DNA from: a virus
Length of the DNA: 64,000 nucleotides
Strand: one strand, 5' to 3'
IMG/VR virus record: IMGVR_UViG_3300027759_000050
Location: 32,001-96,000 of that record
Shown piece after piece: positions 39,789 through 57,587 of the stretch; positions within the stretch are counted from its first letter, which is position 1; every line of letters starts with the position of its first letter. The position numbers and the translations under genes were made by a program. The notes under the pieces were generated by a model. That model was not told the origin of the DNA. It made no database searches and worked only from the letters and a program-made list of their open reading frames with translations.

Positions 39789-40439
39789 ATGATATACACA
39801 ATTTACAAGTCTGTCAATAGACAAAACGGCAAAGTTTATATAGGTTTTGATTCCAATTGGCCTAACCGAGTTAAAATACATAAATCTTCCTATAAAAAAC
39901 AAGATTATAAGTTCTACAGAGCCATCCAAAAATATGGATGGGAAGAATTCGAATGGTCTGTTGTATATCAATCTTTAGAAGAAGAACATACATTAAATAT
40001 TATGGAAAACTTTTTCATAAAAGAATACGATTCATATCAAAATGGATATAATTCAACATTGGGTGGTGATGGTACATTAGGTGTTGAAATGTCCAAAGAA
40101 AATAAATTGAAAATGAGTGTGTTGCATAGTGGTAAAAAATTAACGGCAGAACACATTGAAATACTTCGTGAAAAGGGTAAAAAATTAGTTGGTGATAAAA
40201 ATCCAATGTTTGGTAAAAAACTCACAGATGAACACAAAAAGAAGATTTCTAAATCCAGTAAAGGTGTATCGAAAGTTTTTACGGAAGAACATAAAAAAAA
40301 TCTAAAATGTCATAACAATAATTCATCCAAAGTTTTATGTCCCTATTGTGATAAAATTGGACAATTAACAAACATGAAGCGTTGGCATTTTGATAATTGT
40401 AAATTAAGTCCAAAGTCCTCTATAGTAACGGCCAAATAG
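39789..40439 (+). CDS. GIY-YIG homing endonuclease with NUMOD3-type repeats, inserted against the operon direction
   Basis: IYTIYK...KVYIG, YRAIQKYG, GYNSTLGGDG, KNPMFGKKLTDEHKKKIS, CPYC...RWHFDNCK; late-like CTAAATA upstream. Confidence 0.88.
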   Translation: MIYTIYKSVNRQNGKVYIGFDSNWPNRVKIHKSSYKKQDYKFYRAIQKYGWEEFEWSVVYQSLEEEHTLNIMENFFIKEYDSYQNGYNSTLGGDGTLGVEMSKENKLKMSVLHSGKKLTAEHIEILREKGKKLVGDKNPMFGKKLTDEHKKKISKSSKGVSKVFTEEHKKNLKCHNNNSSKVLCPYCDKIGQLTNMKRWHFDNCKLSPKSSIVTAK

Positions 40440-44903: not shown

Positions 44904-45440
44904 TTAGCCCTTGACAATATCGAAACTCAGTATAGGATGGCGGTGTCCCTGATTGAACATAGGTGCTCTAGTGGTTTCTTTCCATGTCCAGATTTCATTA
45001 AAACCTTCCTCTAATTTAGGAGGTTCATATCCTTGGATCATGTTATCAATTACATCCACTGGAATAACTTTACCAGCACGAAGGCTTAATCTTTGATTCA
45101 ATTCTGACCTGTCAGGTGTAGGAAATACCACAGCAATAATATAGTAATCAGACAACATAGCGAACTTTTTACGCCGACTGTTTATAGTAGTGGAGGTTTG
45201 ATCCCAAATAATATCCTGATTGTTTTCGCGAGCATAGATAACTTCAGCAGCCATCAACTCTACGGCTGCTGGCATAAAAGTGGAGAAAATATCACTATAC
45301 TCCCGATACAATTCTCCAGCCCATTTTTCAATGTGTTTGTCTGTAGAAATGTAAGCACACTCACTAGCCCATTTTTGATTTTGTGCCCAAGAAGATTTAC
45401 CTGAACCTGGAACACCAACCAACATATACAAATAACTCAT
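44904..45440 (-). CDS. P-loop kinase (AAA_33/PNK-like)
   Basis: LVGVPGSGKSSW, ISTD, IIWDQT, PKLEEGF. Confidence 0.85.
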   Translation of the reverse strand: MSYLYMLVGVPGSGKSSWAQNQKWASECAYISTDKHIEKWAGELYREYSDIFSTFMPAAVELMAAEVIYARENNQDIIWDQTSTTINSRRKKFAMLSDYYIIAVVFPTPDRSELNQRLSLRAGKVIPVDVIDNMIQGYEPPKLEEGFNEIWTWKETTRAPMFNQGHRHPILSFDIVKG

Positions 45441-49186: not shown

Positions 49187-49702
49187 TCATACTTTTTCTC
49201 CTTCGGAATCATCTTCATCCATATTTTCTTCTTCCCAATCTCGAATATAACCAACGATATTAAACATTTCATCCAATTCCTCAGGAATGGTTGCAGCAAC
49301 ATCATCGGCATCACCTTCAAGAGCATACTCATCATTCTGGCCATTTTCGTAGATACCAGCAAAGCCCATGCCAGATTCGTAGTAATAACCTTTGACAGTG
49401 TAACCTTGTTCAGTCAGATAATCATAGAATCGAACAGGAGGTGCCCATGCTGAATCAAATGAAAGGGTTACAGATTCATCGGTGTCCTCGGTGACATAAA
49501 CATCCACATCCCACTTGGTTCCCCAATTAGAAACATTCCAATCATACCAGCTTTCTTCTTCACCGGCAGGCCGAGGAAGCAGGACATTCATAAAATCAGT
49601 TGAAACCTTGGTTTGGTTATTCAGCACGGCCTGACGGAACTCATCCAATTTAGATTTATCGGCATGAGAAACAACAACAACATTAGCGCACCAATTAGGC
49701 AT
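49187..49702 (-). CDS. YubB/ferredoxin-like-fold phage protein (DUF1281-like)
   Basis: MPNWCAN, WYDWNVSNWGTKWD, FDSAWAPP, YYESGMGFAG. Confidence 0.8.
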   Translation of the reverse strand: MPNWCANVVVVSHADKSKLDEFRQAVLNNQTKVSTDFMNVLLPRPAGEEESWYDWNVSNWGTKWDVDVYVTEDTDESVTLSFDSAWAPPVRFYDYLTEQGYTVKGYYYESGMGFAGIYENGQNDEYALEGDADDVAATIPEELDEMFNIVGYIRDWEEENMDEDDSEGEKV

Positions 49703-52330: not shown

Positions 52331-52372
52331 ATTATACACGAATCCTAGGATTTGTCAAGCAACCTTAGTTGC
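52331..52372 (-). promoter_or_regulatory. sigma70 promoter with GCAAC-N4-GTTGC palindrome abutting the -35
   Basis: TTGACA-N16-TATAAT; GCAACTAAGGTTGC identical to the copy at 54174. Confidence 0.85.
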
Positions 52373-52579
52373 GATCCGGTCTTTCTTTACAGAATGATCC
52401 GAAAATACAGAATAAACTCCGTCGGGGGTAATAAATTTCCGCAATTTATGGTTATATTGACCATCCGATACTTTAGTATAACCGTATTGTGGGTGCTGCA
52501 AACGAATATCATCCGTTTTCAACATAAACAGGACATTTTTATATCCGTTATAAACGGCACAGTTTGCAATAATTTTCAT
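52355..52579 (-). CDS. hypothetical early protein ending in IATKVA
   Basis: the stop TGA lies inside the downstream -35 TTGACA. Confidence 0.65.
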   Translation of the reverse strand: MKIIANCAVYNGYKNVLFMLKTDDIRLQHPQYGYTKVSDGQYNHKLRKFITPDGVYSVFSDHSVKKDRIATKVA

Positions 52580-52845
52580 TTTGGACTAATTCCGACTACC
52601 ATATTCATAGTAGAAAAAGATATATTAACCAGAAGCATATTACGGTCGTTCAATGCTGCTTCGATTTTATTCACAATATTATCCTTGAATTGTTGCTCTT
52701 CAAAGGATAGATTATGCCGCGCTTCATGGAGATGGGTATAACCATTATTATCAAAAGTAAATGGTACCAAATATACCTCTTTTGATCCACCTGCGGTAGT
52801 ACCATTCAGCAGTCTCCGAGAATTAAATAATATTTTATTCGCCAT
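52576..52845 (-). CDS. hypothetical early protein
   Basis: SD AGGT; ATGA coupling. Confidence 0.65.
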   Translation of the reverse strand: MANKILFNSRRLLNGTTAGGSKEVYLVPFTFDNNGYTHLHEARHNLSFEEQQFKDNIVNKIEAALNDRNMLLVNISFSTMNMVVGISPK

Positions 52846-52872
52846 AATATCTACCTTTACAGTCCAGACTAA

Positions 52873-53046
52873 TCAATATTCCGCCAGCATTTCATACTCC
52901 GATACCACAGTATCAAAAGCATCCTGCTCAGTAGCAGTTAAGCCCGCATATTCCAGTTCCATTGTTTCAATAGCGTCCATAAATGATTCGCATTTATTAG
53001 AGTAACCGAAGCGAGAAACTACCGCCATTGCTTGTCCGAATGTCAT
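52873..53046 (-). CDS. small acidic early protein (57 aa, not in ORF track)
   Basis: SD AAGG; MTFGQAMAVVSRFGY...EYEMLAEY. Confidence 0.6.
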   Translation of the reverse strand: MTFGQAMAVVSRFGYSNKCESFMDAIETMELEYAGLTATEQDAFDTVVSEYEMLAEY

Positions 53047-53063
53047 AATATAACCTTTTCCAA

Positions 53064-53336
53064 TTAAACCGTTATTAAATAATAATCTTTGATAATACGA
53101 ATAGCATCCTGAATATTATCAGCAGCATTATACAACCAACCAGTTTGAGTATCACCCAAATCAATATTAGAATGATATACTGATATTCCACCAGTTTTCA
53201 TATTATGCACAAATTTACCGATTAGTTTAGAACCATCGAATAAATTATAAGTATAATATTCGGGGTCAGTATCAGCAGTAAATTTGCTAGATTCAGCAAT
53301 AATATAAAAATTGCGCGCGGTAGTATCGTTTTTCAT
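53064..53336 (-). CDS. early protein, probably leaderless (ATG 53336)
   Basis: TATAAT-GGCACCT-ATG geometry. Confidence 0.7.
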   Translation of the reverse strand: MKNDTTARNFYIIAESSKFTADTDPEYYTYNLFDGSKLIGKFVHNMKTGGISVYHSNIDLGDTQTGWLYNAADNIQDAIRIIKDYYLITV

Positions 53337-53343
53337 AGGTGCC

Positions 53344-53875
53344 ATTATACAGGTGCCATAGAGGATTGTCAAGCACTCATAGTTGCGATCCTAGGATTAT
53401 TGTGCAATATAGTGCATTTTTGTGTCATAAAAACAACAGCCCGCAGGATATGTCGCATTATCATGTAAATGAGAATGATTCTCATCCATATTGTCGCATC
53501 CAGAACATTTTAGCGGAGTTTAGTCTGTGTGTCCGATTTTCCTGTGAATAATCCAGCATTATATCAGAAAATCCGAAGGTTGTCAAGCGTTTTCCGCACA
53601 ATTTTCGCATATTTTTCGCTATTGCTTCGAGGTTCTTCATAGATAAAAACTATCGCGGGTCTCTGAGATGCTCTGAGAATATATCAACCACTCTCCACGT
53701 CCATCCCGCTCATTGCTTCGAATCATGCGTCCATTATACCAGAACCCCTGAGCATTGTCAAGCCCTCCTGCCTATTGTATTCCTCTATCAGCCTCTGAGG
53801 TCTCATAGAGGGACTCTATCGATTCGCCCACAGTCGGTGTGCCTCCATCCTATCACAATCCAGAGCCCCTGTCAA
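53344..53875 (-). promoter_or_regulatory. four tandem leftward sigma70 promoters (53344-53372, 53558-53586, 53733-53761, 53847-53875)
   Basis: TTGACA-N17-TATAAT three times and TTGACA-N17-TAGGAT once, with no substantial ORF between them. Confidence 0.85.
53469..53485. promoter_or_regulatory. Fur-box-like operator
   Basis: ATGAGAAT-G-ATTCTCAT perfect 8-1-8 palindrome matching the 7-1-7 Fur motif variant TGAGAAT-N-ATTCTCA. Confidence 0.7.
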
Positions 53876-53885
53876 GCCCCAGCTG

Positions 53886-53975
53886 GACACTACCTGGCCA
53901 CCTGTTTTTTCGGATAGCTTCGAAAAGCTGCAGCTTTCCGCTGGTTTTGACGGAATCAGGTGGCCAGGTAGTGTC
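53886..53975. repeat. 90-bp nested dyad at the early-transcription divergence point
   Basis: 19-bp perfect IR GACACTACCTGGCCACCTG (53886-53904 and 53957-53975) and 14-bp palindrome AAAGCTGCAGCTTT (53924-53937) share one axis (53930/53931). Confidence 0.95.
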
Positions 53976-53985
53976 TCACCATTTC

Positions 53986-54037
53986 GCAACCATTGTTGTG
54001 ATTTTTCGCTTGACAATCCCACTGGTTCTGGTATAAT
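53986..54037 (+). promoter_or_regulatory. first rightward sigma70 promoter with GCAAC-N4-GTTG box
   Basis: GCAACCATTGTTG at 53986; TTGACA(54010)-N16-TATAAT(54032). Confidence 0.85.
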
Positions 54038-54044
54038 GGCACCT

Positions 54045-54191
54045 ATGAAAACGACACACCCTACACCACCAGCCACAGGATGCGACACCGGCCTTTGCCA
54101 GGACTATGATAGTGGATTGGCCCGCTGGTTCTCCAGCCGGTTGGGTGCTCTCTATTATTTGAGACTCCATTTCGCAACTAAGGTTGCTTGA
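54045..54191 (+). CDS. leaderless 48-aa early protein (not in ORF track)
   Basis: ATG 7 nt after TATAAT; MKTTHPTPPATGCDTGLCQDYDSGLARWFSSRL...FATKVA; stop lies within the next -35. Confidence 0.65.
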   Translation: MKTTHPTPPATGCDTGLCQDYDSGLARWFSSRLGALYYLRLHFATKVA

Positions 54192-54216
54192 CATTCCTAC
54201 CAATCCATTGTATAAT
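54174..54216 (+). promoter_or_regulatory. sigma70 promoter cassette
   Basis: GCAACTAAGGTTGC-TTGACA-N17-TATAAT-GGCACC...AAACGAAAC. Confidence 0.88.
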
Positions 54217-54246
54217 GGCACCACTTAAACGAAACAAGGACGCAAA

Positions 54247-54558
54247 ATGATAATCTCCGAATATGATGCTCTGCAAAGCTACGACGAAATGCTGGATGAC
54301 GTATACCCTGAGGTTACTCTGGGCTTCTCCTCCTTCCTGCCTTCCCGTGTGCTGAAGGAAATGGACCGTACGGCCTACAATGAGGGTTTCCATGACTATG
54401 TAAATTCTATGGCTGACGACGGCACCTACGTTGAAGGCTACACCGATGACCTGGAAGAATCCGTCGATGATTCTATGGACGGTGACCACGATTCGGCCAT
54501 GGCCTCTGCGGGCTTTGGTACGGATGAGGATTATGGTTCTTTTGGTAATGAGGAATAA
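54247..54558 (+). CDS. highly acidic early protein
   Basis: SD AGGA; YDEMLDDVY...VLKEMD and SMDGDHDSAMASAGFGTDEDY. Confidence 0.8.
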   Translation: MIISEYDALQSYDEMLDDVYPEVTLGFSSFLPSRVLKEMDRTAYNEGFHDYVNSMADDGTYVEGYTDDLEESVDDSMDGDHDSAMASAGFGTDEDYGSFGNEE

Positions 54559-54559
54559 A

Positions 54560-54688
54560 ATGAAATTTTTAATTGGTATGGCTTTTGGTATCATAGTGGC
54601 TACGGTTGGTTTTACTGGCTTTGCTCAGTTGGCCGACCATGGTCTGGTCAAGGTCAAGGCTGCGGCCACTGAGGTGATTGCCAAATAG
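54560..54688 (+). CDS. small membrane protein; start revised to 54560
   Basis: SD GAGG; MKFLIGMAFGIIVATVGFTG. Confidence 0.7.
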   Translation: MKFLIGMAFGIIVATVGFTGFAQLADHGLVKVKAAATEVIAK

Positions 54689-54697
54689 TTCCAAATC

Positions 54698-54739
54698 GCA
54701 ACTATAGGTTGTGACAGGAAAGACCAACTCTGGTATAAT
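54698..54739 (+). promoter_or_regulatory. sigma70 promoter cassette
   Basis: GCAACTATAGGTT-GTGACA-N17-TATAAT; flanks repeated at 55932-55993. Confidence 0.82.
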
Positions 54740-54760
54740 GGCACCATCTAAACGAAACAA

Positions 54761-54846
54761 GGTTGATCCAAAAAGCAAGACACGCAAAACGGAACCCACG
54801 CGAAAGCAAAAAGGGAACCACGCAAAAAGTCAAGCACGGATCAACC
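54761..54846 (+). ncRNA. stem-closed, U-depleted repetitive leader RNA
   Basis: 9-bp IR GGTTGATCC/GGATCAACC enclosing 68 nt with a single T and three CACGCRAAA units. Confidence 0.5.
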
Positions 54847-54866
54847 ACCTAATTTAAGGACTCCAA

Positions 54867-55235
54867 ATGACCGAAATGACCCGCACCGAAGAGCTTCAAT
54901 CCATCCACTGGGATATGTACAAGGACGCTCATGGCTTCCGTCCTCGCCATGTAAATACCCTCCACTGGACCGAGGAAATGTTCTTGGCTGAATTTGAGGC
55001 TCTCGAGCTGGTCATCCGCCAAGAGGAGCTGCAGCGTGCCTTCGCTGAAGGTAAAGCCGCTGCTCGCTTCGAGGCTCGCGTGGATGACCTGATGGCCACT
55101 GGTGCTAAGGATGCCGAGACGGCCATCCGTTGGATCATGGACGCCGAAGGCGCTAATGGCGACCAAGGCTTCGCTGAGTACCTGCTGGGCCTGCCCTACG
55201 GTTACATTACCAAATTCGCAACCAAAGTTGCTTGA
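54867..55235 (+). CDS. conserved phage early protein ending in FATKVA
   Basis: SD AAGGA; WDMYKDAHGFRPR, GAKDAETAIRW, LGLPYGY. Confidence 0.85.
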   Translation: MTEMTRTEELQSIHWDMYKDAHGFRPRHVNTLHWTEEMFLAEFEALELVIRQEELQRAFAEGKAAARFEARVDDLMATGAKDAETAIRWIMDAEGANGDQGFAEYLLGLPYGYITKFATKVA

Positions 55236-55260
55236 CTTTTCTCTCAACCGGGTGTATAAT
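55218..55260 (+). promoter_or_regulatory. sigma70 promoter cassette
   Basis: GCAACCAAAGTTGC-TTGACT-N17-TATAAT. Confidence 0.85.
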
Positions 55261-55293
55261 ACATCCATCGTAAACAAAAAAGGAAACTTTAAA

Positions 55294-55563
55294 ATGGCTA
55301 AATCAAAATCTTTTCTCGGTTCTGCTCTCGCACTCAAGCGTGAAGCTCTGAAGGCTCTCAAAGCTGAAGTCGCTCAAATGGCTAAACAATATGCTCATGA
55401 GCGTTTCGCTATCAAGCAAGATAAATTGGTTATGGCTGCTGCGCGCAAGGAAGCTGCTATCGCAAAAGCGAAAGCTAAACTGGAAAAGCTGACTGCTCCA
55501 GTCGGTGCGAAAGCTCTCAAAGCGAATCGCAAACCATCCGCAGTTATTGTGACCAAGGGCTGA
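55294..55563 (+). CDS. very basic K/A-rich early protein (possible nucleic-acid binder); start revised to 55294
   Basis: SD AGGA; ARKEAAIAKAKAKLEKL...VGAKALKANRKPS. Confidence 0.8.
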   Translation: MAKSKSFLGSALALKREALKALKAEVAQMAKQYAHERFAIKQDKLVMAAARKEAAIAKAKAKLEKLTAPVGAKALKANRKPSAVIVTKG

Positions 55564-55596
55564 TTATATCACAAGGGGCTTGCTTTGTCAAGCCCC
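55563..55596 (-). promoter_or_regulatory. antisense sigma70 promoter overlapping a GC hairpin
   Basis: minus-strand TTGACA-N17-TATAAT (55591-55563); hairpin GGGGCTTG...CAAGCCCC. Confidence 0.7.
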
Positions 55597-55694
55597 CATA
55601 TAGAAGCATACTGCTTGCCTGACCGAAAAAGTCGTGGTAAACTATAAGAGAAAGAGGTTCGAATCCTCGGGACTGGTAGTGTGCTTCTATATGG
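55596..55694 (+). ncRNA. stem-closed RNA carrying a tRNA-like T-arm
   Basis: closing stem CCATATAGAAGCATACT/AGTGTGCTTCTATATGG (17 bp, one G.U); inside are TGGTAAA and GAGG-TTCGAAT-CCTC. Confidence 0.6.
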
Positions 55695-55710
55695 TAACCA
55701 AGGACATAAA

Positions 55711-55941
55711 ATGAACGAAAATTACAAAGCTGACCTGATGCAACGCTTACAAGGACAAACCTTGACCCGTGCCGAACTATTCAAGGATGACCCTGCTTCC
55801 CTAATCGATGCCGTCCTGGATCAGATTAAAACCGACATAGCCATGGGTGACCTGATGGCCATCGAGGGGCTCCTGATGAATTGCCGCGAGGAGGCTCTGC
55901 TGGGATACCTGCCTGAAGAATTCCTAGGATCGCAACTATAG
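55711..55941 (+). CDS. hypothetical early protein; start revised to 55711
   Basis: SD AAGGA; LIDAVLDQIKTDI..GDL.AIEGLL...LLGYLPE. Confidence 0.75.
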   Translation: MNENYKADLMQRLQGQTLTRAELFKDDPASLIDAVLDQIKTDIAMGDLMAIEGLLMNCREEALLGYLPEEFLGSQL

Positions 55942-55973
55942 GTTGTGACATTCCGACCGAACCTGTGTATAAT
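55932..55973 (+). promoter_or_regulatory. sigma70 promoter cassette
   Basis: GCAACTATAGGTT-GTGACA-N17-TATAAT. Confidence 0.82.
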
Positions 55974-56458: not shown

Positions 56459-56487
56459 AGTATAACACAGGTGGTGGGGGAGGTCAA
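56459..56487 (-). promoter_or_regulatory. antisense sigma70 promoter at the end of the rightward early block
   Basis: minus-strand TTGACC-N17-TATACT. Confidence 0.55.
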
Positions 56488-56840: not shown

Positions 56841-57369
56841 TCTTTATCTCCCACCTAGTCTTTATTTCCTCTAAGGCTTCTTCGAGCGCCTTCGTTCTTT
56901 GTTCCAAATTGGGGTTCGGATAACTATACTGAGTGGTTACTGTGGTGTTAATATTACTAATTGTACCACCTGATCCTATTGGTAACATAGTAACAGGTAA
57001 CATAGTACCAACGGCAACCGTAATAGCCGGCTGCGGCTGAAATTCATCATTAATAATAGTGGAAGCGAATTTACCTGATATACCGTTGGAACCTTTTTGA
57101 ACATCCTCTATGGTCTTTCTAGCCTTAATGGCTTTTATGCACCATGTTATCTCATCTAAATCAGTTCTGTCCTCATAGGACCCAATATAGTATCCTTCTA
57201 TTTCGTTCAAGCCTTTAAGTTGATTTGCATTACTAACATAGACGTACTCAGGAAAATATCCTTCTAATTCTCCACCATATTCGGTCCACTCATGGAGTTT
57301 CTTTCTTTGGTAATCTTCGAACTCTTTGGGGTTACCCGCCACTATAAAAATTTTCTTCTTGGGGGTCAT
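56827..57369 (-). CDS. hypothetical protein
   Basis: IFIVAGN...YVYVS...LKGL...GYYIGS. Confidence 0.7.
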   Translation of the reverse strand: MTPKKKIFIVAGNPKEFEDYQRKKLHEWTEYGGELEGYFPEYVYVSNANQLKGLNEIEGYYIGSYEDRTDLDEITWCIKAIKARKTIEDVQKGSNGISGKFASTIINDEFQPQPAITVAVGTMLPVTMLPIGSGGTISNINTTVTTQYSYPNPNLEQRTKALEEALEEIKTRWEIKNETI

Positions 57370-57587
57370 TTAATCTCTAAGCGTTTGATTAGGTTAGTAA
57401 GCAAAGAACTTGGTGACCTAGGATTGGAAATCTGAAAACCACCACCAGGTGCTCGTTTGACTTTGACACCAGGATTCTGTTTCTTGATTTTCTTAATCAT
57501 CTCCTTATCTTTGGCTTTTTTCTCGGCCGGTGTAAGTTCAGGTTCTTTGTTGATTGGTTCAATATCTTCAATAATTTCTTCGGTCAT
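57366..57587 (-). CDS. hypothetical protein
   Basis: SD AGGAG; ATGA coupling. Confidence 0.7.
   Translation of the reverse strand: MTEEIIEDIEPINKEPELTPAEKKAKDKEMIKKIKKQNPGVKVKRAPGGGFQISNPRSPSSLLTNLIKRLEIK

Follow-up and report, generated by a model that had tools for sequence, protein, structure and literature searches.

The dyad described here lies in the early region of a T4-like phage, within a window (the whole stretch of DNA analysed, 64,000 nt) that corresponds to positions 32001-96000 of a complete, circular genome of 160,679 bp. T4-like genes recognised in this phage include those for the terminase subunits, DNA polymerase, helicase, UvsX, SSB, primase, an SbcC-like gp46 and the late sigma. 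The nearest annotated capsid protein is that of Methylophilales phage Melnitz; with a best match of just 65% identity, the phage therefore has no cultured close relative. The surroundings of the dyad have a GC content above the genome level and hold short ORFs, every one of them with its own sigma70 promoter close to consensus. Elsewhere, we noted a DUF2828/DUF7788 gene (genome 130860-132290) and a GIY-YIG/NUMOD3 homing-endonuclease-like gene (window 39789-40439, plus strand), which lies on the strand opposite its neighbours and is absent from a complete close relative, G001, described below.

The dyad is built from the two arms of an inverted repeat (53886-53904 and 53957-53975), a 52-bp core between them (53905-53956) and a palindrome at the centre of that core (53924-53937; 14 bp long in this phage and 16 bp in most relatives). 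An earlier note, made from the letters of this DNA alone, had described a perfect GC-rich repeat and a palindrome on one axis, separated by mostly unpaired spacers, and this description is accurate: the arms pair at 19/19 positions and have 63% GC, the palindrome pairs at 7/7 positions about the same axis (53930/53931), and the two 19-bp spacers pair at just 7/19 positions, their equal length being an automatic consequence of the shared axis. The left arm contains an 18-bp invariant part (53887-53904) with two tandem CYACCTG heptamers 8 bp apart, and the arm cores stand 62 bp apart, each 31 bp from the axis. The left half of the core has a degenerate pair of 10-bp direct repeats with A-tracts in phase (53913-53932, plus strand) and the right half a mirror pair (53929-53948, minus strand), giving 37/60 identities at a lag of 10 (p<5e-5). 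The A/T tracts of the core are phased at about 10 bp (95-99.6th genome percentile), which is partly a by-product of the palindrome.

No other perfect short-range inverted repeat in the genome has arms as long as those of the dyad. Perfect arms such as these are expected by chance 1.3e-4 times per genome, and the coaxial centre multiplies this figure by 9e-5. No further copy of an arm was found in the genome, allowing up to four mismatches. The GC content is 52% for the dyad and 44% for its core, against 37% for the genome and 49-57% for the surrounding 100-bp windows. As single-stranded DNA the dyad folds at -31.2 kcal/mol (z -6.0) and as RNA at about -50 kcal/mol. With respect to short words, GATC is strongly avoided genome-wide (169 observed vs 498 expected), and CTGCAG, which forms the centre of the dyad, is also rarer than expected (20 vs 46).

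Genome-wide, all five of the plus-strand promoters that match the sigma70 consensus at 11/12 positions or better lie at 54010-55945, while the other 39 are on the minus strand; with every strong plus-strand promoter placed just to its right, the gap that holds the dyad is therefore the main sigma70 divergence of the genome. The first consensus rightward promoter is at 54010-54037 (plus strand) and the consensus leftward promoter at 53733-53761 (minus strand), the non-coding leader of the latter defining what we call the hub in all relatives. Between that leftward promoter and the dyad is a weak sigma70-like one (53847-53875, minus strand; 10/12, extended -10). The earlier note had set the dyad exactly at the axis of divergence with outward promoters immediately on both sides. 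It does lie within the main divergence gap and between a divergent pair, but 12 bp off centre, with 55 and 79 bp between the axis and the starts of the outward -35 boxes, and its closest leftward neighbour is only the weak promoter. A switch in cumulative GC skew at the dyad, which the note had suggested looking for, does not occur: the curve peaks near genome 60.7 kb and then falls through the site without reversal.

Among alleles, the distance from the dyad to its flanking promoters varies from 52 to 79 bp with no common phase, and lineages differ in where the dyad stands relative to the promoter cassettes nearby. The weak promoter of L002 is found on the other side of the dyad and aims into it, with a start site at the first arm base; no inward promoter is present in the window or in the L001 group. 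Given the variable, unphased distances and the exchanged side of the weak promoter in L002, the dyad is autonomous and not the operator of any one promoter. The promoter cassettes themselves (window 52331-55973) carry a GCAAC-N4/5-GTTG motif that abuts the -35 box, are repeated in both orientations and are PeSL-like. Leftward promoters predicted at 55563-55591 and 56459-56487 (minus strand) aim antisense into the rightward early gene block. At window 54041-54074, four independent contigs start within the 0-30 bp that follow the start site predicted for the 54010 promoter; if these are RNA assemblies, they would support that promoter and the passage of no RNA across the dyad.

Relatives carrying the dyad were recovered by pattern scans of IMG/VR and metagenomes and by look-ups of neighbouring proteins, and the clade so defined consists of T4-like freshwater phages. 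The dyad was found in three lineages, namely that of the window (L049, L046, L230-233, L254-257), the L001/L013 group and the L002 group, in all of which there is one copy per genome, always at the early hub. When 49 related records, of which 10 are at least 90% complete, were searched with a profile, only the known copies came up and none outside the hub. Neither a relaxed arm pattern, a core-only pattern nor the profile model yielded further dyad families, and no dyads of other sequence were seen at divergence points among 80 GP88 loci. Most metagenome pattern hits (34/42) were unrelated, GC-rich or REP-like; L018, L025, L026, L029, L030, L039 and L043, for instance, are unrelated bacterial REP-like inverted pairs that share the 10-bp arm core through chance of the search pattern. 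The GTDB genomes gave no dyad match, their seven scattered 18-mer hits being at chance level, and no match was found in annotated phages or plasmids, among Rfam families or, as a published description, in the literature searched. Suspected likenesses to hix/gix, shufflon, SOS, NrdR and Burkholderia parS sites were dropped for apparent misfits of spacing or sequence. The dyad is thus real, conserved and undescribed in what was searched, but, as shown below, optional.

Seven alleles could be aligned without gaps. The 18-bp arms of the window and of the L001 group are identical at 18/18 positions, while the flanks align at only 46-58% and the cores are 58-63% identical (53-77% between lineages overall). 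L002 keeps one full 18-bp arm and 15/18 positions of the other. In the alignment as a whole, 15/18 arm pairs never vary and none covaries. At the centre, two of eight pairs have changed on both sides between lineages, including the innermost pair, which could not close a hairpin; this covariation represents one evolutionary event among three independent lineages only and carries little statistical weight. No allele departs from a core of 52 bp, homopolymer runs notwithstanding. These patterns suggest that selection acts on both the sequence and the spacing of the dyad, as would be expected for proteins that read duplex DNA. The proposal of the earlier note that the symmetry reflects proteins bound to duplex DNA, and not an RNA hairpin, is supported by the invariant arms, the fixed spacing, a centre compensated to its innermost pair and the tolerance of inversion.

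That inversion is seen in one strain (L013/L042), in which the core is the reverse complement of that in L001, L024 and L045, although the flanks keep the same orientation (85-88% identical); turned round, the core is 98.9% identical to theirs. The inversion alleles that the note had asked about therefore exist, but the orientation is fixed per strain, with eight assemblies inverted and 11 sister-strain assemblies the other way, and the two never occur within one strain among these consensus contigs, in which rare flips would not show, so the core does not appear to be a switch. The eight independent assemblies also rule out an assembly artefact. Core orientation is uniform in the L002 and L046 groups. 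The arms of the flipped allele are 24 bp long instead of 18 bp, gained by loss of one mismatch, and an intermolecular template switch is known to yield an inverted spacer with homogenised arms (PMC8604942); the inverted core together with the perfected arms thus fits template switching as a rare historical event. As the flip is tolerated, the function of the dyad is presumably independent of core orientation. Two single contigs deserve mention here: L199 joins the left flank of the flipped strain to an unflipped core and is possibly a recombinant, and L200:1-904 ends at the first bases of a dyad arm, possibly a sequencing drop-out at a hairpin.

In other relatives a 99-bp block (53881-53979), bounded by CCA microhomology, is missing altogether (L056, L203-207, L251, L258-261). 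The complete genome that holds L056 (G001, 170,520 bp) has 89% nucleotide identity to the source phage over 107 kb, with 98.3% identity in the polymerase, 97.8% in both terminase subunits and 95% in the helicase; in it the two hub flanks are joined directly, and no dyad copy occurs anywhere. The empty site recurs in five further assemblies of the L056 phage, as well as in L251 and L258-261, and its presence in JGI, Logan and ENA assemblies rules out an assembly artefact. More widely, the hub was identified in 18 IMG/VR stretches, only two of which have the dyad. Conservation in relatives is thus rigid across three lineages, but the dyad is missing from most relatives that share the hub, a complete close one included, and the idea of an essential unique centre is not supported, since G001 does without it. 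Alleles with and without the dyad are intermingled on the GP88 tree (L086 falls with L013, and L056 with the window) and core divergence follows the tree; the simplest history to be drawn from these sequences is therefore a single ancient gain followed by repeated losses, with the proviso that the deep GP88 node is weakly supported and the region recombines. Repeated transfer may have occurred instead of a single gain.

The hub contains other small elements. A palindrome at 53468-53486, Fur-box-like by the Fur consensus, is as patchy among relatives as the dyad: it is present with sequence variants in the window, L046, L251, L001, L002 and L086 and absent in L056, L254 and L258. The window has a single DnaA-box match (53543-53551, minus strand), and tandem DnaA boxes 11-12 bp apart lie near the hub in the lytic-type T4-like phages L001 (9704-9724), L024, L002 (G004 45210-45229), L138, L144 (12835-12855), L149 (5443-5463) and L151; in each of three long contigs (G004, G005, G006) this is the only close pair. 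Both the Fur-like and the DnaA boxes vary independently of the dyad. The leader of the 53761 promoter (window 53694-53738, minus strand) is non-coding, G-rich and conserved in 18/18 hub-bearing viral stretches, and so more widely spread than the dyad; it may be a small RNA or an R-loop primer, and is a more promising origin candidate than the dyad. Elements closed by 13-22-bp terminal stems, many of which begin CCATAT, were found at window 55596-55694 and at genome 133212-133305 and 136489-136585, with many copies in G005 and G006, and are probably small RNAs.

We looked for a partner of the dyad among phage genes. The protelomerase or recombinase genes that the earlier note had in mind were sought in the complete genome as PF16684, PF00589 and PF00239, all without a match; by Pfam, the phage encodes no tyrosine recombinase, serine recombinase/resolvase or protelomerase, and no ParB, endonuclease VII or Y1 transposase; a host recombinase could conceivably act on the core instead. 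No ORF of at least 45 aa co-segregates with the dyad in a comparison that comprised partial contigs and one complete dyad-bearing genome. Three individual candidates were rejected: an Api92-like ORF (49187-49702), found also in the dyad-less G003 and G008; a 345-aa ORF at genome 114304, found also in the dyad-less complete G032; and a 73-aa ORF (57366-57587), missing from the dyad-bearing L001.

Most likely, the dyad serves as an optional site for protein binding and is not where the phage starts replication, packages its DNA or resolves its ends. Our preferred reading, held with moderate confidence, is that it would act as an accessory, orientation-independent protein-binding module on duplex DNA, recruiting or titrating what is probably a host protein to a benefit that depends on the host. 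A dimeric or oligomeric protein would read the tandem heptamers of each arm and the central half-sites, all of which would fall on one helical face, and the A-tracts would bend the DNA between these sites to give a compact wrapped complex. A host-encoded binder is more likely because no phage gene tracks with the dyad and the rest of the genome is free of half-sites. The most likely role of the dyad, suggested only by analogy with the Fur box and DnaA boxes that are just as patchy at this hub, would be to recruit or titrate such a host protein in the only gap of the early region that is free of transcription. A host-dependent benefit would in turn explain the patchy distribution. Loss could proceed by slippage between the flanking CCA repeats or by recombination with empty alleles, and the core flip would be a rare template switch.

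The main rival, possible though unlikely, is that the dyad is a redundant accessory replication origin or origin enhancer, where an initiator binds the arms and the 10-bp repeats like iterons and divergent transcription gives supercoiling and primers. Loss of such an origin could be tolerated, since replication in T4-type phages starts from several origins and also depends on recombination; T4 has at least five origins, with oriE, oriF and oriG near transcription-strand switches (PMC3016281). The location of the dyad at a transcription divergence beside early promoters, its iteron-like repeats and fixed geometry, the tandem DnaA boxes that several relatives have close to the hub and the presence of UvsX, helicase, primase and SSB genes would all suit an origin. 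However, the GC-rich dyad and its equally GC-rich neighbourhood lack an AT-rich unwinding element, the skew does not switch, no initiator gene was found to co-segregate, most hub-sharing relatives have no dyad, and dyad and DnaA-box pairs occur independently of each other.

A second and distinctly unlikely alternative is a non-autonomous mobile element (MITE/REPIN-like) or a remnant recombination site inserted at the hub, the arms being kept as recognition ends. It would account for the differing placement of the dyad among promoter cassettes and for the clean filled and empty alleles, although their 3-bp flanking repeat is confined to the window's lineage and deletion by slippage fits equally well. 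A mobile element is hard to reconcile with a single copy per genome at the hub only in 49 related records and with GTDB genomes devoid of copies; moreover, no target duplication common to the lineages and no transposase or recombinase was found, and core divergence follows the phage phylogeny.

We regard as improbable a stem-closed small RNA or RNase III processing stem, comparable to other long-stem RNAs of these phages. The stable RNA fold, the weak L002 promoter that would start transcripts at the first arm base and the similar terminal-stem elements (window 55596-55694, genome 133212 and 136489) point that way, but the window and the L001 group have no inward promoter, the 18-bp stem shows no covariation, complementing the whole loop is tolerated and Rfam offers no match.

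An essential unique centre, whether a packaging/entry site, a hairpin-telomere resolution site or a recombinase-driven inversion switch, is highly improbable. Nested symmetry, unique position and the existence of two core orientations would be in keeping with it, yet G001 lacks the dyad while sharing 97.8% identical terminase subunits, no protelomerase, integrase or resolvase was found, and the orientation is strain-fixed, the perfected arms of the flipped allele being as template switching predicts (PMC8604942). Very improbable, too, is a neutral fold-back relic that owes its perfect arms solely to template switching from one arm to the other. Although the dyad is dispensable and repeatedly lost and template switching does act on it, homogenisation cannot hold arms identical between lineages while the core diverges by about 40% (chance about 0.6^18 = 1e-4), and the spacing is fixed despite homopolymer runs.

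Returning to the accessory protein-binding module, we suggest, tentatively, that the early hub as a whole may be a swappable array of host-protein sites (Fur, DnaA and the dyad's binder) that would titrate host regulators during phage replication or form an optional host-assisted origin, with the dyad as an undescribed wrapped nucleoprotein site. The dispensability of the dyad and the lack of a found binder speak against a unique control centre. As an undescribed family of cis-elements with unusually rigid geometry, the dyad offers a ready-made comparison in its natural filled, empty and flipped alleles in otherwise close phages, and if the hub is indeed a modular array of host-protein sites, non-coding DNA would be an accessory tool of host takeover in T4-like phages.

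Among known systems, spacer inversion by intermolecular template switching (PMC8604942) matches the inverted spacer and homogenised arms of L013/L042, and accounts for this flipped allele only, not for the conservation of the dyad. T4 oriE (with its 12-nt iterons and early promoter), oriF and oriG resemble the dyad in the vicinity of a strand switch, early promoters, short spaced repeats and individual non-essentiality (PMC3016281); unlike them, the dyad is symmetric and GC-rich, and has no unwinding element, skew shift or linked repEA/repEB-like gene that we could find. PeSL promoter/stem-loop cassettes belong to T4-type phages (PMC2839356, PMC4122927). Like these, the dyad lies in a hyperplastic early region crowded with repeats of sigma70 promoter cassettes, and close relatives differ by its gain or loss, but it is single-copy, is tied to no one promoter, has a 52-bp spacer with its own palindrome and is without terminator geometry. 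The single copy and variable promoter distance led us to reject it as a PeSL cassette, i.e. a repeated terminator stem-loop with an adjacent sigma70 promoter; the PeSL-like repeats here are the neighbouring promoter cassettes. The telRL site of N15 is a near-perfect palindrome beside the gene for its enzyme and is essential. It shares with the dyad a central palindrome with coaxial flanking inverted repeats, whereas the dyad has unpaired spacers, no protelomerase gene to go with it and a dispensable role. P1 parS and similar bent nucleoprotein sites have two protein-binding arms, tandem short boxes and a central bend. Although the dyad lies in a lytic T4-like context, in a phage without a ParB gene, it is like P1 parS in architecture: about 90 bp, with two arms of tandem short boxes held at a fixed spacing.
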